The position numbers and the translations under genes are program-made. From NCBI RefSeq assembly GCF_000007225.1, contig NC_003364.1, forward strand, positions 1,680,001 to 1,712,000: 32,000 nucleotides of DNA, given 5' to 3'. Under the pieces are notes generated by a model. It searched no databases. It was given only the letters and a program-made list of their open reading frames with translations, and was not told where the DNA came from. This DNA comes from Pyrobaculum aerophilum str. IM2. Its GTDB lineage: Archaea > Thermoproteota > Thermoprotei > Thermoproteales > Thermoproteaceae. This document shows positions 1-29,939 of this stretch, in pieces. How positions within the stretch are numbered: position 1 is the stretch's first letter; every line of letters begins with the position of its first letter.

Positions 1-1447
1 ATAGGAAGATCCCGCCCGGCTGTTGTATTCTGCCGAGAAGCGCGAGGAGTATTCCCACGGCTCTCCACGTCTGCGGAGAATTGCTATAACGGGGGTCGTG
101 CCACCCTATTGGGGCAACCGCTCTGTATTTGGCGACTATTTCCGCCGCCTTTTTAAGGTCGTCGATATTCACATCGGCCTCTCTCGCCGCGGCCTCAAAG
201 TAGTCCTCCACGCCGTGTTTTTTAGCAAGCGCCGCGAGATTCGCGTCTACCCACTCTTTTAATATAGTCAACGCCGTTTTCACCCTCGCTACAGTCCCGT
301 CTCTAAGCTGGACTTCAAACTGGCCAAATAACGCGGCCGTCTTTGCCACGGCGTCTGGTGCCGGGGCGTTAGTTGCCAAGTCCCACACTACGTACGCAAA
401 ACCGGCGGGCTCTGCCATATTATATTTATCCCAGGCCACCTCAGAGGCCAATAGCGGCAACCCGTTCTCTTTTATTAAAAACGGCGCATTGGTAAATGTC
501 CTTAAATAGTGCTCTACGTAGTAGCCGTTGTCGAGGACGTATTTAATAAAGGCCAGGAGGACAGCTAAATCCGTGCCAGGCTTCACTGGAAGCCACACCG
601 TGGCGTAAGACGCCGTTTCGTCAAACACCGGGCTTAATACTACTAACTTAGCGCCTTTTTTCACCGCCTCCATAAACCGCCACGTGTCTGATACCACGCC
701 TGCGCCAATTACGTTTCTCCTAATTACGAGTATTGCCTCTGCCTCTTTGTAGTCAACGCATACAGTATGGGCTTGGTGTCCGTGGCCCCACGTAACCCAG
801 TGGCCGAGGTAGCGGGGATATGTGCAGTACGGGTTGTCAAAAGTTATTTGACCACAGCCGTAGGTATCTGCAAATCTGCGGATGGAAACAGCGGCGCGCA
901 TAGACGCCGTTGGGCCCCAAGCGCCGAAGAGAAACGTCATTGCGTGCCGCTCGTTATTGTCGGCTAGTTCTTTAAGCTTCTTAGCAATGATCTCAATTGC
1001 TGTTTTCCAGTCAACTTCCACCATGTCGTCATACCCCCCGCGGCTCTGCATTAACTGCCTCTTAGCCTCCTCCCAGCTTATTTTGCCCTCTACCCAGTCG
1101 ACTAGAGCCCTCCTCGCCATGGGCTTCTTAATGGCGTCTGGGTTGAGCCACGCCGTGAAAGTGCCCGAGACACCCCTAGCGCATATCCCCATGGCGCTAG
1201 TGGGGGCGTTGGTATTAGGCCTTATCCTAACGGGCTTTCCATTTACTACGTTGATATATATGGCGCACTGCGCCATACACATGCCGCATATTGAGGGAAT
1301 AGAGACGATATTTGCCGCGGGCGCCTCGGCCTTTGCGCTAGCCGCCTCAGCCGCCGCTTTTAATAAAATTCCCGACACGCCTCCCAATACGCCAATAGTA
1401 ATGCCTGTTTTCAAAACATCTCTTCTAGATATAGACGTACGCTGCAT
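1..1447 (-). CDS. Molybdopterin (DMSO-reductase family) oxidoreductase catalytic subunit, first ~482 codons; the 3' end runs off the window
   Basis: Absent from the ORF track because it stays open to the window edge. My translation from ATG 1447 gives MQRTSISRRDVLKTG (twin-arginine signal), then PSICGMCMAQC...GICARG (CX2CX3C..C FeS motif). It is clearly paralogous to the 816-aa ORF at 7942 (NAPFLIK, PGTD blocks). The + strand ORF 882..1517 is its antisense shadow. Confidence 0.85.
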   Translation of the reverse strand, partial: MQRTSISRRDVLKTGITIGVLGGVSGILLKAAAEAASAKAEAPAANIVSIPSICGMCMAQCAIYINVVNGKPVRIRPNTNAPTSAMGICARGVSGTFTAWLNPDAIKKPMARRALVDWVEGKISWEEAKRQLMQSRGGYDDMVEVDWKTAIEIIAKKLKELADNNERHAMTFLFGAWGPTASMRAAVSIRRFADTYGCGQITFDNPYCTYPRYLGHWVTWGHGHQAHTVCVDYKEAEAILVIRRNVIGAGVVSDTWRFMEAVKKGAKLVVLSPVFDETASYATVWLPVKPGTDLAVLLAFIKYVLDNGYYVEHYLRTFTNAPFLIKENGLPLLASEVAWDKYNMAEPAGFAYVVWDLATNAPAPDAVAKTAALFGQFEVQLRDGTVARVKTALTILKEWVDANLAALAKKHGVEDYFEAAAREADVNIDDLKKAAEIVAKYRAVAPIGWHDPRYSNSPQTWRAVGILLALLGRIQQPGGIFL

Positions 1448-5067: not shown

Positions 5068-5592
5068 GTGGACACTGCTGAGCTAAAGCGATTGCTCCGA
5101 GAGGCGGCGAGGGGGAACCTCGCCCTACTCCGGGACATGCCCCTAGAGGCCTTGCGGGAGAAAGCGGCAAAATTGCCAAACCTCATCCTCCGCCTAAAAG
5201 TGGCCTGGCTGGCGAAGTCCCTGCTGGAGGAGGCGGCCCTTCTCAACGTAGCTATAAAAAACGACGTTGCGCAGGGGATCGACGCCGAGGTAAAACGCCT
5301 TGAGGAGAAGACCGCGTCCACAAAGGAGTCGCCGAGAGAAATAACGCGCCTAGAGAGCCGCATAGCCACTGGGGAGCAGTTTGAAGATCTGACCTCGTCT
5401 TTATGGAAGGAGGCGGCGGTGGGCTATGTCAAGGTTAGGGCCAAATGGGCGATAGGACGGCCGGAACTGATGAACAGAAAAGCCGCGCTTGCCCTTTTTA
5501 CACTGGCCGCAAATCCAGATGCGGCGGAGAGGGCAGAGGGGTTGTGGCTCGTTAAATGGGGCTGGGGGTGGGAATATTGGGCACTCCGTTAA
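5068..5592 (+). CDS. Hypothetical helical protein (174 aa), first gene of a two-gene operon with the ATPase
   Basis: GTG start about 19 nt after CCTTATATAC. Its stop codon lies 4 nt before the ATPase ATG. No family recognised. Confidence 0.5.
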   Translation: MDTAELKRLLREAARGNLALLRDMPLEALREKAAKLPNLILRLKVAWLAKSLLEEAALLNVAIKNDVAQGIDAEVKRLEEKTASTKESPREITRLESRIATGEQFEDLTSSLWKEAAVGYVKVRAKWAIGRPELMNRKAALALFTLAANPDAAERAEGLWLVKWGWGWEYWALR

Positions 5593-5596
5593 TGCC

Positions 5597-6577
5597 ATGT
5601 ACTGCGGCTTCCGCGTGAGGTTCGTGGGGCGTTACGTGTGTTTCTCAAACCGTTTAACAGAGCTGGAAGAACTTTTGGAAATGGCCAGGCGCGGCCTCTC
5701 TATGCCTCTTTTGATATACGGGCCGGAGGGCTGTGGGAAAACAGTCTTATTGAGGTATTTATACCAGAGGCTGGCAGAGGGGTATGAATACGTAATTTAC
5801 TACTCTCCTCTACACGGCGTCGACGAGGGCCTTGTATCTACTGACGACGTGAAAAAAGCCGTAATATCGCTTGCAAACGCCTTTGGCGGGACTCTGGCGG
5901 CTGTGGCGGAGGCCGTTTTGGCAGTGGGCGAGTTGTTGGCCAAAAGGCTGGGGGTGAGGAGGGCCGGCGGCATTGCAATACTACTCGACGACGTATTCCA
6001 AGCGGTTGGAAGCGTTGAGTTATACGTAAAAAAGGCACTGACGGTGGTGGAACACCCCCCAATTGAAGTAGATAAAACGTTTGTAATAATAGCGTCGTCA
6101 GAGGGAGTCGGCTTGGAGGCCGTCGGGAGACACCTATGGACAAATATAAAAACACTGTGGAATTTAGATAAAGAGGGTTTTAAAGAGCTTATAAGCCAGA
6201 TAGGGGGAGATGTGGAGCGGCTGTGGAAGCGGTCTGGGGGAAACCCCAGGGCTGTGGAGCTACTCGGCGACGAGGGGTGGTCTGTGGAAAAGGTAATTAA
6301 AAAGATGTACAGGGCTGACAACATTGACTTGAAGCTATTGGCCAGACATAAAGCAATAGTCGAGAGGGCTGTGGAGGATCCCGACGCGCTGCTCGAAGCG
6401 CCGCAGGAATTAACGCGCTATCTCCTTTCAAAAAACTTAGTGGCGAGAATAATTGACCCCATAAGGCGAATTGAAAGAGATAAAGAGCTGGGGATCGGCG
6501 AGGAGTACGCCTGGCAAACGCCGCTACACCGGAGTGCTGTGGAAATAGCACTGCGGCAATTGAAAGGGGCGCCGTAA
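5597..6577 (+). CDS. P-loop NTPase of the archaeal ATPase (Arch_ATPase/AAA-like) type
   Basis: FVGR...ELEELL, then Walker A (YGPEGCGKTVLL) and Walker B (AILLDDVFQ). I place the start at ATG 5597 rather than track start 5489, which overlaps the upstream gene. Confidence 0.7.
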   Translation: MYCGFRVRFVGRYVCFSNRLTELEELLEMARRGLSMPLLIYGPEGCGKTVLLRYLYQRLAEGYEYVIYYSPLHGVDEGLVSTDDVKKAVISLANAFGGTLAAVAEAVLAVGELLAKRLGVRRAGGIAILLDDVFQAVGSVELYVKKALTVVEHPPIEVDKTFVIIASSEGVGLEAVGRHLWTNIKTLWNLDKEGFKELISQIGGDVERLWKRSGGNPRAVELLGDEGWSVEKVIKKMYRADNIDLKLLARHKAIVERAVEDPDALLEAPQELTRYLLSKNLVARIIDPIRRIERDKELGIGEEYAWQTPLHRSAVEIALRQLKGAP

Positions 6578-7530: not shown

Positions 7531-7862
7531 GTAATAAACGCCCCATTGATATATAAGTCTAGTCCCGTTGCCATTGCTGCTCGCCGTATGTCTGAAAACT
7601 GAGAAGTTTTACCGCCATAGGGTTTGCGGCTTAATAAGCGGTTTGGCCACGTTCAGCGAACTCCATGGAAATAGGGGGGATGCGTCACGGGCAATGACAT
7701 ATGCCGAAAGTCCCCTAGTCTAAACTACGAGTGGACGAAGAGATTTAGCCTTTTCTGGGAGTTTTATGGGTAATTCTGGCAGAGTTGCTCAAAATAACAA
7801 GAACAGATAGGGACGCCGAATAAAATCGCAACCAAAAAAGCGCACATAACGCCGTTAAGCAT

Positions 7863-7921
7863 TATATTCAGTGCACACAACTTATACTAATTATTCACTT
7901 TGAATACAAAAAATTTTATTT
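7863..7921. promoter_or_regulatory. Promoter region of the oxidoreductase ABC operon: TATATTCAGTG (7863-7873), TTATTCACTTTG (7891-7902) containing the palindrome ATTCA-N3-TGAAT (7893-7905), and TATA ATTTTATTT (7913-7921)
   Basis: Read directly from the sequence. ATG 7942 lies 20 nt after the TATA element. Confidence 0.5.
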
Positions 7922-7941: not shown

Positions 7942-10392
7942 ATGACAAACTTATCAAGACGCGAATTTGGAAAATTAGTCGTTACTACGGCTTTAGTGTC
8001 ATCTAGCGTGGCGGCCCTTAAACCGCTGTTTGAGGCAAAGTCTGCACAAGTGACACAGACTGGCGTAGAAGCCGTGCCTATTACGTGTGCGGCATGCGGC
8101 GCGGCCTGCGGTTTGTTTTTTGTAAGAAATGGGCAGAGGATGTACCTCTTGCCTAATCCCAAACATCCGCAACCCGGCATGTGTTTTAGGCCCGCCTCTG
8201 CGTTGCAACTTTGGAACCACCCGCTGAGGCTGAAAAAGCCTCTTAAAAGAGTGGGAGAGAGGGGAGAGGGGAAGTTTCAAGAAGTCGACTGGGAGACCGC
8301 TCTTAATGAAATCGCTCAGAGACTTAGAGAAATAGTCCAGAGATACGGCCCTGAAAGCGTGGCCTTCACGCGCCACGACCACATGTCTTGGATTTTGCCA
8401 TTTATAGCGTCTGTTATAGGCACACCTAACATAATTAGCCACGAGGGTACTTGTCACGCCGCCTCGACGGCGGTCCGTAAATTCGTACTCGGCGCCAGCG
8501 GCCCTAGCTCGGTGGATCCCGATTATGAAAACGCGAATTATATTTTGCTCATTGGGAGAAATTTAGACGCGGCGATGGGGCACATCAGAAGACTAACAGT
8601 TGCGAGAGAAAAGGGTGTGAAAGTTGTAGTGGTAGACCCAAGGGCGCCAAACCTCGCCTACTCCTCCGTGGAGTGGATACCCATAAACCCAGGTACAGAT
8701 GCCGCGTTTGTCCTGTCGCTTATATACGTCATCATCAGTGAAGGGCTATACGACGCCGCGTTTTTAAAGAAATATACAAATGCGCCGTTTTTAATAAAAC
8801 CGGATGGACAACCGCTCACGCAAAAAGACCTCGGACAAGAAGGCACTGCATACTTAGTATACGACAACGCCGCTAAAAGCCTTGCGCCACACGATAAAGC
8901 CCAAGACCCTGCGCTCGACTACGAAGGTGAAGTGCAAACCCCCGCGGGAGTTATAAAAGTCAAAACGGCTTTTAGACTACTGGCAGAGAGAGCGGCTAAA
9001 TACACTCCAGAAAACGCCGAGAAAATCACAGGCATTCCCGCTGATACTATTAGGAGAATAGCGCGGGAATTTGCAACATCTAGAGGCGTTGCAGAAGACG
9101 GGTGGTACACGGCGAAAAACGGCAACGACTTCGACGCTTATAGGGCGATATTAATTTTAAACGCCCTCGTTGGGAACATAGACAAGAGAGGCGGTTTGTG
9201 TTTCCAGGAAAGCTCAAAATTCCCCAGTGCAGTCACTGTATTCCAAGACCGCATAGAAACAATAATAGGACACGTCCTACCGCCTATAAAAGCTCAGAGG
9301 TTGGATAGGTTGAAATACCCTGAGACTCCCGCCACCTTTGACGCACTTTTAGATGCCATTATAGAGGAAAAGCCCTATCCCGTAAAAGCTCTGTTTATAG
9401 TTGCGACGTCGCCTTTCCACCGCGATGTCAATACTGAAAAACTCAAGAAGGCGTTGCAAAAATTAGAGCTGATTGTCGCTATAGACATACTCCCACAAGA
9501 TCACATCGATTGGTCTGATTACGTGTTGCCCGACTTGATGTTTTTAGAGAGAGAAGAGATTGGAAGCATTAAGTGGAGTCTCCACGCCGGGATTCGCTAC
9601 TCACATAAAGTGTTAGATCCACCTCCTGGCGTAGACGCGAGGAGCGCCTTCTGGGCGCTAATGGAGATAATTAGAAGGGCATTCCCCGAGAAGGCTAAAA
9701 TTGTTGAATACGATGAGAAATACGCCGATTACAACGCATTTGAACACTATGAGAAGAAATTCTTCGAGGCTGCGTTGAGAAAATTAGCAGAGACGTGGAA
9801 ATTAGACTTTGAGGAAATTAAAGAGGCCTTGGAGAGAGATGGCTTCTACATTTTGAAAAAGAAGACTTATGAGACAAGGCCGTACAAAACTCCGCTGGGG
9901 ACGCCCAGCGGGAAGGTTGAGATATACACGCTCAGGGCGCTCAAATATGGAATAGATCCCCTGCCAGATTGGATACCCCCGGTTTATAAAATACCACAAG
10001 CGTCTGACGAATTTTACCTCGTAAACGGCAAGGACAACTTCGTAAGCGCCCATATGGTTATGGTTAAAAACGCCAAGTGGATAGCCGACAGAACTGTTTG
10101 GATGAACCCAGCAGACGCTGAGCGTCTCGGCATTAAAGACGGAGATGTTGTAGAGCTAGAGGGCCTCGATAACGGCTTCAAGGCGATGGCTGTGGTAAAG
10201 GTGACAAATAGAGTAAAGCCGGGGGTGTTGTTTACATACGCCTTTGTCGGCGGCAGGACTAGTAAATTAATAAGCGGCGAGTACCAGTTCCTTAAAGAGG
10301 GCATCAACCCGCAGTGGTTCACCACGGGGAAAGTTGAGCCTGTTGTCGGAAGCGCGCCTACAAACAGCTCTGTACGAGTGAGGAGGCTATGA
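7942..10392 (+). CDS. Molybdopterin oxidoreductase catalytic (A) subunit, Psr/Phs/Ttr/Arr-like, Tat-exported; substrate not assignable
   Basis: 816 aa. N-terminal LSRREFGKLVV twin-arginine signal and CAACGAAC...C FeS motif. MopB-type length, with a C-terminal VWMNPADAERLGIKDGDVV molybdopterin dinucleotide-binding block. ATGA overlap with the B subunit. Confidence 0.9.
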   Translation: MTNLSRREFGKLVVTTALVSSSVAALKPLFEAKSAQVTQTGVEAVPITCAACGAACGLFFVRNGQRMYLLPNPKHPQPGMCFRPASALQLWNHPLRLKKPLKRVGERGEGKFQEVDWETALNEIAQRLREIVQRYGPESVAFTRHDHMSWILPFIASVIGTPNIISHEGTCHAASTAVRKFVLGASGPSSVDPDYENANYILLIGRNLDAAMGHIRRLTVAREKGVKVVVVDPRAPNLAYSSVEWIPINPGTDAAFVLSLIYVIISEGLYDAAFLKKYTNAPFLIKPDGQPLTQKDLGQEGTAYLVYDNAAKSLAPHDKAQDPALDYEGEVQTPAGVIKVKTAFRLLAERAAKYTPENAEKITGIPADTIRRIAREFATSRGVAEDGWYTAKNGNDFDAYRAILILNALVGNIDKRGGLCFQESSKFPSAVTVFQDRIETIIGHVLPPIKAQRLDRLKYPETPATFDALLDAIIEEKPYPVKALFIVATSPFHRDVNTEKLKKALQKLELIVAIDILPQDHIDWSDYVLPDLMFLEREEIGSIKWSLHAGIRYSHKVLDPPPGVDARSAFWALMEIIRRAFPEKAKIVEYDEKYADYNAFEHYEKKFFEAALRKLAETWKLDFEEIKEALERDGFYILKKKTYETRPYKTPLGTPSGKVEIYTLRALKYGIDPLPDWIPPVYKIPQASDEFYLVNGKDNFVSAHMVMVKNAKWIADRTVWMNPADAERLGIKDGDVVELEGLDNGFKAMAVVKVTNRVKPGVLFTYAFVGGRTSKLISGEYQFLKEGINPQWFTTGKVEPVVGSAPTNSSVRVRRL

Positions 10393-23564: not shown

Positions 23565-24560
23565 CTATGTGTTTATATATTTAATGTAGGGGAGGATTAG
23601 GTGTTCGTGTACTTGTCGCGGCGGTATGTTAAGCTTAACCGAATACTGGCCAAGCGGCGTGCCGCCGAGTTTAGTCAGCTCGTACGCGGCTAGCCCGACG
23701 ACGCAACTGCCCTGTCCGCATCTAACTACGATTTTATACGGCGGAGGGGGGTATATGTGAGCTATTAACGTCCCCCGGCTGTAATAGCTCCTGACCTCCA
23801 CCGCCATTCGCCCCGCCTCTACCACTGGGATGAAAGTCCTGGGGTGGAAGTTCTTAGCCCCCACTTTGGCCGCCTCAACGGCCTCTTGTACGGACAACAG
23901 CGGCAATACATAGGCCTCTTGCACCTCCCTGGGATCGGCCGTCATTACGCCTGGGGAGTCTGTGACTAAGGACACTTTCCTAGCCCCCAGCTCTTTGCCT
24001 ATATAAGTGGCCGTATAGTCGCTGCCGCCCCTCCCCACTGTGGTGAACCTGCCCTCTTTATCCCTTCCAATAAAGCCGGTGACGACAGCCACAGCGTCTG
24101 GCCGTGACATCTCCTCCTTATGCTCCAGCGCAATTGGCTCGGCGTTTCCGTAATTGCTATCTGTGAGCATCGGCGCGATGAAGAGCTTGGCCTCAATCCC
24201 CATTTTCTCAAGAACTGCGTGTAGCATTGTTGCTGAGAGCCTCTCGCCAAATGACGCGAAGTAGTCCGCAGACCACGGCGCGTGCGGAAGCCTTAGGGCG
24301 TACTCAAGCTCTTTTAACAAGGGGGCGATCCTCTCCTCCACCCCCAGCCCTCTGGCGATAGAGATGTGCCTATGTGCCAACTCCTCGTATAGCAAATAGC
24401 TCCTAGTTTTTTCAAGTTGTAACAATAAATCCGTCACGCCCTTTACCGCGGACACCACCACCACGGGGGGTTCGCTGTAAGCGGCTACAAAGTGGGCTGC
24501 TTGCACGAAGTCCGCGGCGGAGCGTAGGAGAGAGCCGCCTATTTTTACCACTGGTTTCAT
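23565..24560 (-). CDS. Aspartate kinase, short form (331 aa)
   Basis: Amino-acid kinase fold: VVKIGGSLL, VVVSAVKGVTD, RGGSDYTA and VMTADPR. Only about 60 aa follow the kinase domain. ATGA overlap with the thrC stop codon. Confidence 0.85.
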   Translation of the reverse strand: MKPVVKIGGSLLRSAADFVQAAHFVAAYSEPPVVVVSAVKGVTDLLLQLEKTRSYLLYEELAHRHISIARGLGVEERIAPLLKELEYALRLPHAPWSADYFASFGERLSATMLHAVLEKMGIEAKLFIAPMLTDSNYGNAEPIALEHKEEMSRPDAVAVVTGFIGRDKEGRFTTVGRGGSDYTATYIGKELGARKVSLVTDSPGVMTADPREVQEAYVLPLLSVQEAVEAAKVGAKNFHPRTFIPVVEAGRMAVEVRSYYSRGTLIAHIYPPPPYKIVVRCGQGSCVVGLAAYELTKLGGTPLGQYSVKLNIPPRQVHEHLILPYIKYINT

Positions 24561-25704
24561 TTTTCCAAAAGCTCTATCAGCTCGTCTGCATTTCTCACCT
24601 CCTTCGCTGTTATTTCTATAACGTCGGGGTCTTTCAGCGCATGGCCGGTTACCACGGCCACGGCTACTCCCCCTATATTTAATTTAATCGCCGCGGCTAT
24701 TGACGCGGCGCCCGCGGGCTCCGCCCCTATGCCGTCGCGAGTTGCCAAGAGCCTCTGCGCCTTTAATATCTCCCCGTCAGACACTTTTACGAAAAAGCCT
24801 CCTGACTCCTTCACGGCCCTCAGCGCCTTGGGCCAGTTTATAGGCCTGCCGATTTTAATTGCCGTCGCCACTGTGTTAGGCTCGTCTACAAAAAGCGGCT
24901 CCTCCACGCCGCGGGCCCAGGCCTCGACAAGCGGCGCCGCGCCCTCCGCCTGGACGCCCACCATTTTCGGCAGTTTATTACAAAGCCCCAGCTCGGCGAG
25001 TTCCCTAAACCCCTTCCATATAGCCGAGATATTCCCCGCGTTTCCCACTGGCACTATTACGTAGTCCGGACACCCCAGCTCTTCGTATATCTCAAAGGCC
25101 ACGGTCTTCTGCCCCTCCAGCCTCCACGGGTTAAAGCTGTTTAGAGGATATGCGTATTTTGTCCCGTAGTTAACCACGTAGTCAAGCGCCTTATCAAATA
25201 GGCCGTTTATCATAACAAGCTCAGCGCCGTGTAACGCCGCTTGTATTAACTTCCCCCTGGCCACATTGCCCTTGGGCAAAACTACATAACACCTAAGCCC
25301 AGCCCTAGCGGCGTAAGCCGCCGCAGAGGCCGCCGTGTTGCCAGTAGACGCCACGACGACTTTATTGGCGCCGCTCTCCTTGGCCACAGTCACGCCGAGG
25401 GCCATTCCCCGGTCTTTAAAACTTCCAGTTGGGTTAGCCCCTTCAAATTTTACATACAGATTCTCCGCCAGATTGGATTTCACCAGGGGGGTCCTCCCCT
25501 CTCCCAGGGATATCCCGCTTTTAAGAGGCAACATTGTTGAATAACGCCAGATCCCGTTGCCCTTTGGGGCCCAGACTTTATTACGAACTTCCACTTCAAG
25601 CAAGCCGCCACATTTAGGACATCTATATAGCCGGTAATCTGGGGCAAACCTCTCGCCGCAAGTTATACACTTAAGGCGTACATCGTCCCCGAAATCCCCG
25701 CCAT
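24557..25704 (-). CDS. thrC: Threonine synthase with an N-terminal zinc ribbon; the body frame has no start before TTG 25603, and the only upstream ATG (25704) is in the frame 1 nt downstream
   Basis: PLP-lysine block GANPTGSFKDRG and full-length TS similarity. The Zn ribbon LKCITCGERFAPDYRLYRCPKCGG is encoded in-frame upstream of the track start. ATG 25704 lies 18 nt after ATTATATATA. Confidence 0.85.
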
Positions 25705-25722
25705 GGCCTAAAAATGTTGAGG

Positions 25723-25759
25723 TATATATAATCTTTTTGCAGAAGAAAAACTTATATAG
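25723..25759. promoter_or_regulatory. Back-to-back divergent BRE/TATA elements for thrC (minus) and the lysX-like operon (plus)
   Basis: Minus strand: GCAAAAAG-ATTATATATA, then 18 nt, then ATG 25704. Plus strand: GAAGAAAAA-CTTATATA, then 19 nt, then ATG 25778. Confidence 0.55.
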
Positions 25760-25777
25760 AGGTTAAATGAGGGTGGC

Positions 25778-26451
25778 ATGGATCTGGGGCCAGAGGGGAA
25801 AGTGGGGCGATTTACGTCGTTACAGACAGCCCCACTGTATATGACAAGGTAATAGTTGACGCCCTATCCTCTAAAGGAAAAAGGGCATCTATTCTCAATG
25901 TCTCCGAAATTCCTGTCTATAAAATACGCGGAACAGCGCTACTCCGGCTGAGCAATCCGTACGCCGCGGTGATTTACGGCCAAGTTGCCGAGGCGAGTAT
26001 AAACCCGCCTGAGGCGATATCCTCAGCCTTAAATAGACTCGCTTGGATTTCTAAATTCGGCCCCCCTCACGTGATAATCTCCACGGACTATTCTGTGGAA
26101 AAAGTGGAGCTTGAAAGGCCGTGGTTTTTAATGACTGCTTGGAGGCTCGAAATAGACGGCTCTGTCACCAGCGTAGAGGGGGCGAGGAGCGTGTTAGAAC
26201 ACAGGATGTACATGAAAAACCCGCTATCTAAAGTCTCCTTAGTCGTTCCCAAGCCTCACAGAACGATATCTGTTTTCGCCACAGTGAAAAACGCCACCGG
26301 CCTCGTGTCTGAGGTGTTGAGCCACTTGGGCCTTTTATATGCGAGAGTAGTGCTGGGGGACTACGGCGGGAGACATTTCGTAATAGACGTCGACCCGGTG
26401 CCGAGGCTTGAAAACAAAGAAGAGGCTCTGGCGGTGGCGGAGTTGTTATGA
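25778..26451 (+). CDS. Divergent LysX/ArgX-like ATP-grasp homolog; the body frame lacks a start before GTG 25969, and ATG 25778 is in the frame 1 nt downstream
   Basis: The body frame, open from 25771, reads GAIYVVTDSPTVYDKVIVDALSSKG...INPPEAISSALNRLAWISKF...HRTISVFATV...GGRHFVIDVDPVPRLEN. This is collinear with LysX/RimK-type ATP-grasp proteins but about 60 aa shorter. ATGA overlap with argC. Confidence 0.55.
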
Positions 26452-27503
26452 AAGTCTGTATTATAGGAGCGTCGGGCTTTGTGGGCGGGGAGCTTTTGAG
26501 AATACTCTTGCAACACAGCGGCGTGGAGGTGGTCTGTGCCACTTCTAGAAGATTTAAGGGGGAGTATGTATACAGAGTTCACCCCAATCTGAGGGGGTTC
26601 ACCCAGTTGAAATTCGTAGAGCCCTCAATAGACGCGGCGTTGAAAGCCGATGTGGTATTCCTCGCGTTGCCGCACGGTGAGTCTGTCAAATGGGTCCCTA
26701 AGCTCTACGAGTCTGGCGTCGCGGTTTTTGACCTCAGCGCGGACTTCAGGCTGAAAGACCCCAACGCATATGTGGAGTGGTATAAGTGGCCGCAGCCTCA
26801 CCCCTATCCTGACCTTTTACAAAAAGCTGTGTACGGCCAGCCGGAGCTACACAGAAGCGAACTAGTAGGGGCTAAGCTCGTGGCAGTGCCCGGCTGTATG
26901 GCAACGGCGTCTATATTAATGCTGGCGCCTTTAGCTAAACACGGCTTGTTGGGAGAGACGCCGCCTGTGATAGACGCCAAAATTGGATCAAGCGGGGCTG
27001 GGGCTGAGGGGTCAGTGGTAGATCTCCACAGCTTTAGGACATATGTAGTGAGGCCCTACGAGCCCGTGCACCACCGCCACATAGCCGAAATTGAGCAAGA
27101 GCTCAGCCTCCTCGCGGGGAAAAGAGTTAAAGTGGCCTTCACCCCGCACGCAGTCGATATGGTCAGGGGGATTTTCGCCACAGGCCACGTCTTTGTGGAA
27201 AAAATGCCCACTGAGGCCGACATGTGGAAAATGTATAGATCTATGTACGGAGATTCTAAATTTATACGTATTGTAAAGGACAGATTGGGGATTTCCAGGT
27301 ATCCAAATGTAAAATACGTACTGGGTTCTAATTTTGTAGATATAGGCTTTGAGTTAGACCAGAGGCTTAATAGGCTGGTGACCTTCTCGGCTATAGACAA
27401 TTTAGTGAGGGGTGCCGCCGGGCAGGCAGTACAGGCTTTTAACGTGGCAATGGGCTTTCCCGAGGACGAGGGCCTTAGGTACATACCGCTGGCGCCAGTA
27501 TGA
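26448..27503 (+). CDS. argC: N-acetyl-gamma-glutamyl-phosphate reductase family enzyme (ArgC/LysY)
   Basis: [18 protein letters not shown] Rossmann motif, active-site PGCMATA, and C-terminal [13 protein letters not shown]. Confidence 0.9.
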
Positions 27504-28285
27504 TCGTCGTAAAAATTGGAGGATCGGTAGTGTGTAAAGACGCCTCAAAAGTTATTCAAAACCTCCCTAAATACGCAGATAGGGCTGTTGTTATACACGG
27601 AGGGGGGTGTCTGGTGAATGAGTTGTTAAAAAGAATGGGAATAGAGCCGAAGTTCTTGACGCACCCAGGCGGGCTTGTGAGCAGATATACCGACTGGGAG
27701 ACTTTGAAAGTCTTTGTAATGGCTATGGGCTGGATTAATAAATACATCGTCGCCTCTTTACACGGCCTCGGAGTCCAAGCCCTTGGCCTCACGGGGGCTG
27801 ATCTCGGCGTGGTAGTGGCCAAGCGCAAGGAGAGGGTTTTAGTTATCGACGAGAGGGGGAGGCAGAGGGTTGTGGACGGGGGATACGTGGGGAAAATCGC
27901 TGAAATACGCGTTGACAAATTAACGCCGCCTCCGCTGAAAGTCCTGGCCCCAGTAGCCGTGTCAGAAAAGGGAGAGCTTTTAAACATCGACGGGGACCAA
28001 CTGGCCTTTGACGTAGCGAGGGAGGCGAAGGCGGAGAGGCTTATTCTACTCAGCGACGTGGAAGGCCTCATCCTCGGGGGAAAAGTAGTGCCGCGCCTCA
28101 CACCTGAAGAGGCGGAGAAACTCGTAAAAAGCGAAGAGGTTAGGGGCGGCATGAAGAGAAAACTCCTCATGGCCTCTGAAGCGGCCAAGTTGGGAATTGA
28201 AGTAGTTATATCAAGCGGCCTGGTTGATTCCCCAATAGATGCGGCTCTTAACGGCGCTGGAACTCACATCATTAAAAACATATAG
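27500..28285 (+). CDS. argB: Acetylglutamate kinase family enzyme (ArgB/LysZ)
   Basis: [26 protein letters not shown] and GGMKRKL motifs. ATGA overlap with argC. Confidence 0.9.
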
Positions 28286-28355
28286 TACTTTATACAAGTT
28301 TTTAAAGAATATTAATAGAGAGTAAAGTTTATATACTAGTCTAAAATTTCTCTTT

Positions 28356-28541
28356 ATGGCAACCCAAAAACTAGTGGTTCAGTGCAAGGTGTGCGGAACG
28401 GAGTTTGAACTCCCCGAGGACGTCATGGACGGGGAAATTGCCAGTTGTCCCACATGCGGAGCCCGTTATATTGTGAGACTTAAAGGCGGGTCTGTCACGT
28501 TGGAGGAGTTTAAGGGAGATGTGGAGGACTATGGAGAGTAA
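28356..28541 (+). CDS. lysW: LysW-type amino-group carrier protein (61 aa)
   Basis: Zinc ribbon CKVCG...CPTCG plus the acidic C-terminal tail EDYGE (canonical EDWGE). ATG about 19 nt after GTTTATATAC. Confidence 0.85.
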   Translation: MATQKLVVQCKVCGTEFELPEDVMDGEIASCPTCGARYIVRLKGGSVTLEEFKGDVEDYGE

Positions 28542-29735
28542 GTCGGGGCGAGCAAGATAGTACTGGCCTACTCCGGAGGCCTAGACACCACAGTTGCAGT
28601 TAAGTGGCTCTCTGAGAAATTCGGCGCCGAGGTCTACACCGTTACAGTAGACGTTGGGCAAGAAGACGACTTTTCAAAAATAGAGGAGAGAGCTTATAAA
28701 GCGGGGGCTGTTCAACATTTTTACATAGACGCTAAGAGGGAATTTGCCGAGGAGTACATAGCCAGGGCGATATTAATGAACGGCATGTACGAGGGAGTAT
28801 ACCCCCTGGGCACTGCCCTAGCCAGGCCTCTAATTGCGGCGAAAGTCGTTGAGGTTGCCCGGAGGCTGGGGGCCGACGCGGTGGCGCACGGCTCCACTAG
28901 TAAGGGCAATGACCAGGTTAGATTCGACGTTACTGTAAAGGCCCTGGCGCCCGACCTCAAGATAATCGCGCCGGCCAGGATCTGGGGAATGACGAGGGCT
29001 GAGGAAATCGAATACGCCAAACGCCACGGCTTGCCAGTGGGCGAGGAGCATAAAAAGTACAGCATAGACGACAACCTCTGGTCTAGGTCAATAGAGGGGG
29101 GACCTATCGACGACCCCCTTGCAGAGCCCCCTGAAGATGCATTCAAATGGACGGTGTCTCCCGACAAAGCGCCGCACGACCCCACTTATTTAACTATCGA
29201 ATTTGAGAAGGGGCTCCCCGTGGCAGTGAACGGAGAGAAGATGAGCCTCGCGTCCATTATTTCATTGCTCAACCACGTCGGGGGCGCTAACGGCGTGGGG
29301 AGAATCGACCACATTGAGAACAGACTAGTGGGGTTTAAAAGCCGGGAGGTATACGAGGCCCCTGCGGCTGTTATACTCTATCACGCCCATAGAGACTTGG
29401 AAAAAATGGTCTTAACGCCTAGGGAGCTTCGCTTTAAGCACTACGTCCTAGACCCCCAGTGGGCTGACTTAGTCTACCAGGGCCTCTGGGTAGAGCCCCT
29501 CCGCAACGCCCTGGAGAAAGCCGCTGAGGAAATGGAGAGGTGGGTAAGCGGGGAAGTGAGAGTGAAGTTGTACAAGGGGTCTTTGTGGGTGGTGGGAAGG
29601 GAGTCTCCTTACGGCGGGTATAGCAAAGAGTTAGCCGATTACAGCGCCGGGTGGTATCCAAGCGACGAGGAGGCCAGGGGGTTTATTGAGATGTGGAGCC
29701 TCCACTCCCTCACAGCCCTCCGCCGTAGAAAATAG
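28531..29735 (+). CDS. argG: Argininosuccinate synthase; the enzyme frame is open from 28542 but has no canonical start before 28776, and ATG 28531 is in the frame 1 nt downstream
   Basis: The in-frame N-terminus [20 protein letters not shown] (ATP pyrophosphatase motif) is encoded at 28551 onward, upstream of the track start. [12 protein letters not shown] and the rest are intact. GGAGG lies 3 nt before ATG 28531, which overlaps the lysW end. Confidence 0.85.
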
Positions 29736-29783: not shown

Positions 29784-29939
29784 ATGGGGCAAAGAACTGT
29801 GGTGTGTCCAAATTGCAAAAAACCGGTGAAACCCGTGGAGTGTAACAGAAAAAACCAAACGAGGCGCTACGTGGTTATTACCTACTGCTGTCCTAAATGC
29901 GGAACAGAACTATTAACTGAGAGGGTTGAGGTACACTAA
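29784..29939 (+). CDS. Small basic zinc-ribbon protein (51 aa), not in the ORF track
   Basis: MGQRTVVCPNCKKPVKPVECNRKNQTRRYVVITYCCPKCGTELLTERVEVH. CPNC..CPKC knuckles. ATG 18 nt after GGTTTTATATTG. The stop TAA overlaps the argH ATG (TAATG). Confidence 0.5.
   Translation: MGQRTVVCPNCKKPVKPVECNRKNQTRRYVVITYCCPKCGTELLTERVEVH

Follow-up and report, generated by a model that had tools for sequence, protein, structure and literature searches.

The start of argG, the gene for argininosuccinate synthase, is not obvious in Pyrobaculum aerophilum str. IM2: its reading frame opens directly behind the stop codon of lysW, and the ATG at this junction lies in another frame. We wanted to define how ribosomes enter argG. 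For this, we analysed a stretch of 32,000 nucleotides (NCBI RefSeq assembly GCF_000007225.1, contig NC_003364.1, positions 1,680,001 to 1,712,000 of the forward strand), called the window below; coordinates are counted from its first letter. A sequence-only reading of the locus had proposed that ribosomes start at the out-of-frame ATG and that tRNA-Gly slips by -1 on a run of four G while an arginine codon stands in the A site. Comparison across loci supports this mechanism, the shift itself being a prediction, and we consider it likely that argG is made by an obligatory programmed -1 ribosomal frameshift serving as an arginine sensor.

The argG frame and its out-of-frame leader

The junction between lysW and argG contains the following features.

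28356..28541, plus strand: lysW, encoding a LysW/ArgW carrier protein of 61 residues (Pfam Zn_ribbon_LysW, NCBIfam carrier_LysW_Arch)
28523..28527, plus strand: GGAGG, Shine-Dalgarno-like, inside lysW and 3 nt 5' of the leader ATG (read from the sequence)
28531..28560, plus strand: argG leader, 0 frame, the sole canonical start open to argG, GGAGGACT ATG GAG AGT AAG TCG GGG CGA GCA AGA TAG
28545..28551, plus strand: proposed shift site G_GGG_CGA (read from the sequence; third positions invariant in Pyrobaculum; motif also in Thermoproteus loci)
28542..29735, plus strand: argG reading frame, -1 relative to the leader, with post-shift translation predicted from 28548 and a stop at 29733-35 (NCBIfam argG equivalogs)

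The frame relations described by the sequence-only reading were found again in the window. The ATG at 28531-33 opens an open reading frame (ORF) of nine codons, which ends with the TAG at 28558-60 and encodes MESKSGRAR. The argG frame is that of lysW and is open from 28542, directly after the lysW TAA (28539-41). Its first ATG, GTG or TTG is the ATG at 28776, the use of which would cost about 78 residues including AYSGGLDT. The run of four G (G4) covers 28545-28548, the next 0-frame codon is CGA (28549-51), and a -1 slip at this point would fuse MESKSG to the argG frame. NCBIfam argG equivalogs span residues 7-398 of the predicted trans-frame product, with trans-frame residue 7-9 matching model position 1-4. 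Because these profiles align from near the model start, the trans-frame product would be a complete ArgG, whose sequence is intact and conserved.

In the window, lysW ends with GTG GAG GAC TAT GGA GAG TAA, and the leader ATG is formed by TAT GGA, so that the conserved C-terminal codons GAC TAT GGA GAG TAA enclose it. The lysW tyrosine codon is TAT in every lysW-linked Pyrobaculum locus compared, TAT making up 36% of Tyr codons; it would be needed there because the leader ATG depends on TAT GGN. The GGAGG at 28523..28527 presumably acts in initiation at ATG 28531, and it is equally possible that this ATG, 8 nt ahead of the TAA, is coupled to lysW termination.

Since lysW and argG share their frame in all Pyrobaculum loci with lysW upstream, the lysW stop might be read through to give a LysW-ArgG fusion. 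However, the shared frame is automatic once the ATG lies inside TAT GGN, the stop is TAA (TGA in the Pyrobaculum locus L008) without any read-through context, and in P. oguniense, Thermoproteus, Caldivirga and Vulcanisaeta the leader is kept although lysW does not precede it. LysW also needs a free C-terminal glutamate, which is the attachment site in characterised LysW proteins, and we regard read-through as virtually excluded. In one of the loci compared (L171, about 209-215, minus strand), LysW was seen to end with DYGQ instead of the usual DYGE.

The leader is conserved in the Thermoproteales

We looked at 30 Thermoproteales argG loci from 4-5 genera, obtained from one species-representative genome scan, one metagenome scan and individual protein look-ups. 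In all 30, a start codon lies in the frame that requires a -1 shift, and it is followed within 4-7 codons by an X_XXY site and then by an arginine codon. This start is ATG in 26 loci and GTG in the four Vulcanisaeta loci. The leaders of the 14 Pyrobaculum loci, which come in part from complete genomes (P. islandicum, P. arsenaticum, P. oguniense and Pyrobaculum sp. WP30), read ATG GNN AGT RAR (T/A)CG GGG CGA, the one of P. oguniense, without lysW upstream, being ATG AAA TCG GGG CGA. Thermoproteus and its relatives have ATG CCY TCG GGG CGA or ATG GCG AGC AGC GCC TCG GGG CGA, Caldivirga has ATG GAT AAC YTG GGA CGA, and Vulcanisaeta has GTG RAT NNC YTA AAC CGG. Thus arginine is the 0-frame codon after the slip site in four genera while the slippery codon itself differs (GGG, GGA or AAC).

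About 130 argG loci of other archaea and bacteria came from the same scans, and almost all of them carry an in-frame ATG 15-42 nt before AYSGGLDT; at most Thermoproteales loci, neither ATG, GTG nor TTG is present in frame over this interval. The deposited Thermoproteales ArgG proteins begin at ATC, CTG, ATA or ATT read as Met (MGASK..., MAYSGG..., MALAYSGG...) or are truncated, and evidently gene callers hit the same start problem. Altogether, these comparisons make it very probable that a conserved -1 recoding event is required for the synthesis of ArgG.

A sequencing or assembly error (a true G5), or a pseudogene, would account for the frame of a single locus, since errors in the length of homopolymers occur often and a single additional G restores the frame. 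When this was checked, G4 and the out-of-frame ATG were present in every Pyrobaculum and Thermoproteus argG locus examined, that is, in about 20 loci from complete genomes of different projects and from metagenomes. In addition, two other genes of the window show the same pattern, and ArgG is not degraded. An error is therefore rejected.

An extra G might also be added to the G4 run by RNA polymerase, and a G5 mRNA would indeed encode exactly MESKSGASKIV.... Against such transcriptional slippage, Caldivirga (GGGA) and Vulcanisaeta (AAAC) keep the layout without a G4 run, and the leaders described below contain two or three G4 runs each, where several insertions would scramble the frame. Transcriptional slippage also leaves the conservation of the next codon unexplained, and four G are very few for a polymerase to slip on. 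We judge it very improbable.

The leader and site are more conserved than the coding sequence that follows. Across 12 Pyrobaculum loci, the argG leader and site show 96% pairwise identity, compared with 80% in the next 300 nt and 53% at third positions, and the third positions of GGG and GCG at the site are invariant in 12 of 12 loci. These values indicate that the argG shift site is under selection as nucleotides.

The out-of-frame codon as the probable start of argG

The deposited proteins suggest another possibility, namely that ArgG begins at a non-canonical in-frame codon (GTC or ATC after the lysW stop, ATA 28557 or CTG 28563), with the ATG ORF being an overlapping upstream ORF. The database entries that begin at ATC, CTG, ATA or ATT speak for it, as does the overlap of the leader stop with an in-frame ATA (ATAG or ATAA) in many loci. 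However, none of the in-frame positions offers a near-cognate start in every species. Directly behind the stop there is GTC, ATC or AAC; at the Ile position, ATA, ATT, ATC or GTA; and at the Leu codon, CTG, CTC or CTT. ATA 28557, the near-cognate start that the sequence-only reading had named as an alternative, was rejected on this ground, the codon being ATT, ATC or GTA in other species.

The promoters point the same way. At loci without lysW upstream, a TATA box begins 25-28 nt before the out-of-frame start codon, a spacing that would place this codon at the expected 5' end of a leaderless mRNA. Leaderless transcription was first described in P. aerophilum (PMC6028130). In P. oguniense, an in-frame ATG is present 7 nt further upstream, yet it is the out-of-frame ATG that sits at the conserved promoter distance. 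The leaderless 5' end implied by the TATA box at the out-of-frame ATG, and the lack of a Shine-Dalgarno sequence for an internal start, argue against a non-canonical start, which moreover leaves the invariance of G_GGG and of the sensor codon unexplained. In thrC, which shows the same pattern (see below), no start-like codon exists between the slip site and the zinc ribbon. A non-canonical start is thus improbable, and the comparisons indicate that the out-of-frame codon is the real start of argG.

Two further operons of the window carry such leaders

The sequence-only reading had pointed out that the TCG GGG of the argG leader also forms codons 5-6 of the thrC leader on the minus strand, which is the case. 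It had understated the scope of the phenomenon, however: judging from the loci compared, argG is a member of a family of leaders and not a single gene. The additional members in the window are the following.

25663..25704, minus strand: thrC operon leader MAGISGTMYALSV, followed by a stop (two shift sites, TATA box, conserved in relatives)
24557..25705, minus strand: thrC reading frame, -1 relative to its own leader (threonine synthase profiles)
25778..25852, plus strand: leader of the argX/lysX-like-argC-argB-lysW-argG operon, MDLGPEGKVGRFTSLQTAPLYMTR, followed by a stop (three shift sites, TATA box)
25807..26451, plus strand: ArgX/LysX-like gene, divergent and short, for a putative ATP-grasp protein, in the -1 frame of the preceding leader (structure-model matches; no in-frame start before GTG 25969)

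The thrC leader reads ATG GCG GGG ATT TCG GGG ACG ATG TAC GCC TTA AGT GTA TAA, with its ATG at 25704-25702 (minus strand), and a TATA box (ttatatata) begins 27 nt 5' of this ATG. It has two shift sites, GCG GGG ATT (Ile; GGG 25698-96) and TCG GGG ACG (Thr; GGG 25689-87), and it precedes the operon thrC-aspartokinase-asd. The first in-frame start of thrC is TTG 25603, and the zinc-ribbon N-terminus (KCITCGERF..YRCPKCGG) lies upstream of it. Threonine synthase profiles match trans-frame residue 10-11 to model position 2-8, so the zinc ribbon is included. The leader is kept in P. islandicum, P. arsenaticum and two metagenome-assembled genomes (MAGs), with 94% identity compared with 68% downstream and 41% at third positions, and Thermoproteus retains TCG GGG ACA. 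The change from ACG to ACA is synonymous in the leader frame and alters a residue in the thrC frame.

The thrC genes of AT-rich Thermoprotei were considered as further members and were not counted, being ambiguous: their sites lie in the +1 frame, and in-frame starts are found at promoter distance. In L173 and L175 (about 1990-2040), thrC has G_GGA ACA (Thr) in the +1 frame; in L176 (about 2001-2080), it has G_GGA ACA and G_GGA ATT (Ile), also in the +1 frame, in an apparent tandem duplication. In-frame starts are present in all three.

The ArgX-like leader begins with ATG GAT CTG GGG CCA GAG GGG AAA GTG GGG CGA at 25778, 26 nt downstream of the beginning of a TATA box (25752-25758). Its three shift sites are CTG GGG CCA (Pro), GAG GGG AAA (Lys) and GTG GGG CGA (Arg; GGGGCGA 25804-25810). 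The 33-nt leader shows 97% pairwise identity in nine Pyrobaculum loci, compared with 68% downstream and 51% at third positions. In Thermoproteus, the leader is ATG GAA TTT TCG GGG AAA GCG GGG CCA GCG GGG CGA or ATG GCT TCG GGG AAA ACG GGG CCA CTG ACG GGG CGA. The order is therefore Pro-Lys-Arg in Pyrobaculum and Lys-Pro-Arg in Thermoproteus, with the same CCA, AAA and CGA codons, each right after NNG GGG. Such a shuffled order of the same codons is hard to explain by protein coding, and would be expected of independent sensor units.

The protein encoded behind this leader matched no Pfam or NCBIfam family (for Pfam even at E<=1), and its homologues are annotated as hypothetical proteins. Its AlphaFold model is of moderate confidence (predicted local distance difference test, pLDDT, 70.8; residues 93-142 below 50), and the top Foldseek matches of this model in the PDB are ArgX 3vpb, LysX 3vpd and LysX/ArgX 5k2m (E 4e-9 to 4e-7, template-modelling score 0.61-0.73). 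The protein is about 60 residues shorter than all three. From this model, it is probably a divergent, short LysW ligase.

In P. arsenaticum (CP000660, L164), an ABC-transporter cluster has been inserted into the operon and splits it, and the Pro/Lys/Arg leader occurs a second time about 150 nt 5' of argC (about 7755-7905), the -1 frame of this copy being open for about 45 codons up to a TGA that overlaps the argC ATG. From this duplicate ahead of argC, the leader appears to behave as a portable module. In the Pyrobaculum MAG GMQS_201907_bins_3 (L008), the ArgX-like protein is 98% identical to that of the window and ArgG just 86%, a mismatch which suggests recombination or a chimeric bin.

Altogether, overlapping -1 ORFs without a downstream start of their own were found for argG, thrC and the ArgX-like gene in the window. 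The leader ORFs have 6-26 codons, of which 1-3 are sensor codons. When the window and 30 related loci were scanned for an ATG with a TATA box, an in-phase NNG GGG and a long -1 ORF, hardly anything but the argG, thrC and ArgX-like families came up.

A -1 slip that would respond to amino-acid supply

On argG, we propose that ribosomes start at ATG 28531 and read Met-Glu-Ser-Lys-Ser-Gly, which would bring peptidyl-tRNA-Gly onto GGG 28546-48 in the P site, with CGA, the rarest Arg codon, in the A site. When charged tRNA-Arg is plentiful, the ribosome would stay in frame and terminate three codons later, giving MESKSGRAR and no ArgG. When Arg-tRNA is scarce, the A site would remain empty, tRNA-Gly would re-pair on GGG 28545-47, and GCG (Ala, 28548-50) would be read, leading to full-length ArgG. 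Both the P-site slip beside an empty A site and the response of its rate to amino-acid supply are what we infer from the arrangement of the codons. Depending on the genus, the tRNA would move from GGG to GGG, from GGA to GGG (Caldivirga) or from AAC to AAA (Vulcanisaeta), re-pairing in the -1 frame being perfect for G_GGG and involving a wobble mismatch for G_GGA and A_AAC. After the slip, a codon starting with G (GCG, GCC, GAA, GAC or GAT) would be read in the enzyme frame. The predicted junctions are MESKSGASK for ArgG, MAGISGDDVR or MAGDFGDDVR for ThrC, and VGAIYVVTDSPTVYDK (site 3), MDLGPEGESGAIYVV (site 2) or MDLGAR (site 1) for the ArgX-like protein.

The sensor codons correspond to the pathways that follow them: argG has Arg, the shared LysW pathway has Lys and Arg, and thrC-aspartokinase-asd has Ile and Thr. 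The codon after the slip site fits the pathway end product at six of six sites in the window, the chance of these matches being about 1e-5 (a rough value, from codon usage). The link to arginine drawn by the sequence-only reading has thereby gained strength: the Arg codon is kept in four genera despite differing slippery codons, and two other operons carry codons for their own end products.

CGA is the rarest Arg codon: it accounts for 10 of 368 Arg codons in the window (3%) and, when five Pyrobaculum loci are counted, for 35 of 19,819 codons. Among the Pro codons, CCA is used least. In-frame NNG GGG accounts for about 1% of codons, and NNG GGG CGA occurs within the first 11 codons of two separate leaders of the window and is conserved across genera. 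Since CGA is rare and NNG GGG infrequent, and the combination is found twice and conserved, the pattern of the argG and ArgX-like sites goes beyond chance.

A real programmed -1 frameshift could also be constitutive, setting a fixed low expression with no sensing role for the next codon. The frame anatomy and the conservation would be the same as for a sensor, and AAA and ATT, being common, are not obviously codons at which decoding is slow. A constitutive shift does not account, however, for the match to the pathway at all six window sites, for the retention of the codons through the shuffle of their order, or for the retention of Arg through changes of the slippery codon. We consider it unlikely, and the -1 shift probably senses amino-acid supply.

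Stimulatory structures were looked for by folding 100 nt from the start of each of the three leaders; these segments fold no better than shuffled sequences (z = +1.3, -1.8 and -0.45), and an Rfam scan of 25400-28800 at E<=1 matched no family. Terminator or antiterminator hairpins were not found either: the overlap of gene and leader leaves no spacer between them, and neither a significant structure nor an Rfam match is present. Leaders free of structure fit a one-tRNA slip at a hungry codon, since hungry slippage needs no stimulator (PMC8211752).

Taken together, these results lead us to propose a frameshift attenuation in the Thermoproteales, in which one to three one-tRNA slip sites (G_GGG, G_GGA or A_AAC) in a leader of 4-25 codons, each directly before an end-product codon, would direct ribosomes into the -1 frame of the first enzyme upon shortage of any of the corresponding aminoacyl-tRNAs. 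This wider scheme seems to us somewhat more probable than not.

Reinitiation and points that weigh against the proposal

Several observations weigh against the proposal. The support is comparative only, the trans-frame proteins are predicted, and the transcription start sites are deduced from TATA spacing. Many of the compared loci are related or come from MAGs, and their counts are to be read as those of non-independent events. The site is a single-tRNA site and not a classical X_XXY_YYZ heptamer, without a predicted downstream stimulator. G_GGG is common inside ordinary genes (191 in 19,819 codons), so that the site alone is not strongly shifty. An avoidance of G_GGG inside genes was sought and not found, 44.7% of GGG codons following a G-ending codon compared with 31% expected. 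The 5' position, the very short nascent chain and the slow sensor codon are candidates for what makes the leaders efficient. Neither AAA (56% of Lys codons) nor ATT is rare, and sensing would then depend on tRNA charging and not on tRNA scarcity. The Pro sensor would fit only if proline is made from ornithine.

Some relatives also have canonical in-frame starts near the leader stop, namely Thermocladium for argG (TTGA) and for a gene-X-like gene (ATGA), and Thermoproteus for thrC (TTG, GTG or ATG); the leader could be a plain upstream ORF in these cases. In Thermocladium modestius (L167, about 8100-8116 and 9975-10003), as well as in L090, mini-ORFs encoding MERQ and MDNLERR both contain G_GAA CGA, a poorer slip site, and their stops overlap the canonical starts of the gene-X-like gene and of argG, respectively. 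These mini-ORFs may represent another version of the leader, acting as an upstream ORF or by coupling.

Such overlaps raise the possibility of termination-reinitiation, in which the leader is translated, ribosomes restart at a nearby in-frame codon, and the Arg codons modulate how many ribosomes reach the stop. Besides the two Thermocladium genes, an overlap of this kind is present in Thermoproteus thrC (TTGA), and in P. arsenaticum the -1 ORF ends at an ATGA shared with argC. In Pyrobaculum, however, no canonical start lies near the leader stops. The argG leader ends after the AYSGG codons in four Pyrobaculum loci (L003, L004, L005 and L086), where reinitiation cannot yield a functional ArgG for this reason, and the ArgX-like leader extends over about 14 codons of conserved protein sequence before it stops. 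Ribosomes stalled at Arg codons would furthermore mean lower expression during starvation, which is the wrong direction. As a general explanation, reinitiation is thus very unlikely; it may play a part at loci such as those of Thermocladium and Thermoproteus thrC, where the leader stop is overlapped by a canonical start.

Other candidates and neighbouring genes

Two further ATG codons of the window were discarded as leaders. ATG 5556 (ATG GGG CTG GGG GTG GGA ATA) was attributed to chance, since it has no TATA box, belongs to a non-amino-acid gene and has an in-frame TTG upstream; this stretch (5556-5620), in which Leu, Val and Ile codons come after G_GGG or G_GGA, is in the +1 frame where an archaeal ATPase ORF (PF01637) begins. 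ATG 6210 lies inside this ATPase gene. The carA gene of V. moutnovskia (L165; 18118, minus strand) was set aside because its out-of-frame ATG upstream comes with no usable slip site; it is annotated from a GVG-internal GTG, and ATG GAT GAT TCG GTC TAA lies just upstream, out of frame. A scan of AT-rich genera for any X_XXY was too noisy and was not used.

Neighbouring genes start in an ordinary way. A 51-residue zinc-ribbon ORF lies between argG and argH (29784-29939), and its stop overlaps the argH ATG (ATGA); both the small zinc-ribbon gene (29784) and argH (29939) have in-frame ATG starts, and the position of this ORF is kept in P. islandicum and P. arsenaticum. The hom gene (20387) also starts at an ordinary in-frame ATG. 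In the window, asd and hom are about 2 kb apart (20400-22530) with unrelated ORFs between them; in P. islandicum (L161), hom comes directly after asd. Outside the Thermoproteales, the Bathyarchaeia MAGs L016 and L017 have ATA about 20 nt before AYS where the related MAG L018 has ATG, and L017 lacks a canonical in-frame argG start.

Significance and comparison with known systems

Nothing on amino-acid-sensing -1 leaders was found in openly searchable full text and two recoding reviews, a search whose scope did not extend to subscription-only papers, and a 2016 survey of frameshifting makes no mention of Pyrobaculum, argininosuccinate synthase or threonine synthase. The components, that is, hungry-codon slippage, sensor frameshifts and regulatory leader peptides, are known; their combination as an obligatory switch of biosynthetic operons appears to be undescribed. 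Operon-level amino-acid sensing is poorly understood in archaea. Bacterial attenuators need RNA hairpins and leader-coupled transcription, for which leaderless mRNAs of hyperthermophiles have no obvious equivalent. A frameshift switch would work where RNA structures melt, because about 7 nt and the kinetics of tRNA arrival would suffice.

If the proposal is true, neither a regulatory -1 frameshift nor an amino-acid-sensing leader would have been known in Archaea before, and these leaders would be a translational, RNA-structure-free counterpart of bacterial attenuation at about 100 C. They would represent a new regulatory use of recoding and a natural, tunable hungry-codon system for studies of reading-frame maintenance. 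The annotation of argG, thrC and the ArgX-like gene, which now have non-canonical starts or are truncated, would be corrected in all Pyrobaculum, Thermoproteus, Caldivirga and Vulcanisaeta genomes, and more members could be sought by a simple rule, namely a start codon with NNG GGG and a sensor codon behind it, together with a long -1 ORF.

Among the closest known systems is the one-tRNA -1 slip at hungry codons of E. coli, for which no stimulator in the mRNA is required (Gallant & Lindsley 1992, cited in PMC8211752). There too, a P-site peptidyl-tRNA slips by one base while the A-site codon awaits a scarce aminoacyl-tRNA. In E. coli, however, this is an error seen with reporter constructs during starvation, whereas the Pyrobaculum site is conserved and predicted to be the sole route to the enzyme. 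The Pyrobaculum sites also differ by their position, at codons 3-11 of a leader ORF ahead of biosynthetic operons, the mRNA being predicted to be leaderless where a TATA box precedes.

In Archaea, fucA of Saccharolobus solfataricus was stated in a 2021 review to be the only -1 programmed frameshift reported (PMC8211752). As in fucA, an archaeal gene would be read from two -1 overlapping frames by ribosomal slippage, which is here predicted from the genes alone. The Pyrobaculum sites are single-tRNA sites placed beside sensor codons at the 5' end, unlike the A_AAA_AAT heptamer of fucA, which lies in the middle of the gene and has no link to amino-acid supply.

Among eukaryotic systems, the +1 shift of yeast Ty1 (CUU AGG C) depends on a rare Arg codon and a low-abundance tRNA, Ty1 having no role in metabolic regulation. 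With the fungal arginine attenuator peptide, encoded by the upstream ORF of arg-2/CPA1, free arginine is sensed by way of the nascent peptide, and ribosomes stall. The argG leader shares the rare Arg codon with the former and the arginine-responsive short upstream ORF with the latter, and differs from them in that the Ty1 shift is +1 and the attenuator peptide involves no frameshift.

The +1 shifts of prfB (release factor 2, RF2) and antizyme resemble the proposed leaders in that the rate at which the A site is filled, set by the regulated product, determines the frame, and in that the shift is required for the protein. They differ in taking place at a stop codon, with the help of an internal Shine-Dalgarno sequence or a pseudoknot, and in autoregulating one gene, whereas the shift predicted in Pyrobaculum is -1, uses sense codons with several sensors per leader, and concerns at least three operons.

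Finally, the bacterial attenuators (thrL, hisL, trpL, leuL and ilvL) share with the Pyrobaculum leaders a very short ORF with end-product codons that reads tRNA charging, and E. coli thrL uses Ile and Thr codons, the same pair as the thrC leader. In contrast to them, the Pyrobaculum leaders have neither terminator/antiterminator RNA nor an Rfam leader family and overlap their gene in another frame, and their proposed output is a change of reading frame and not of transcription.

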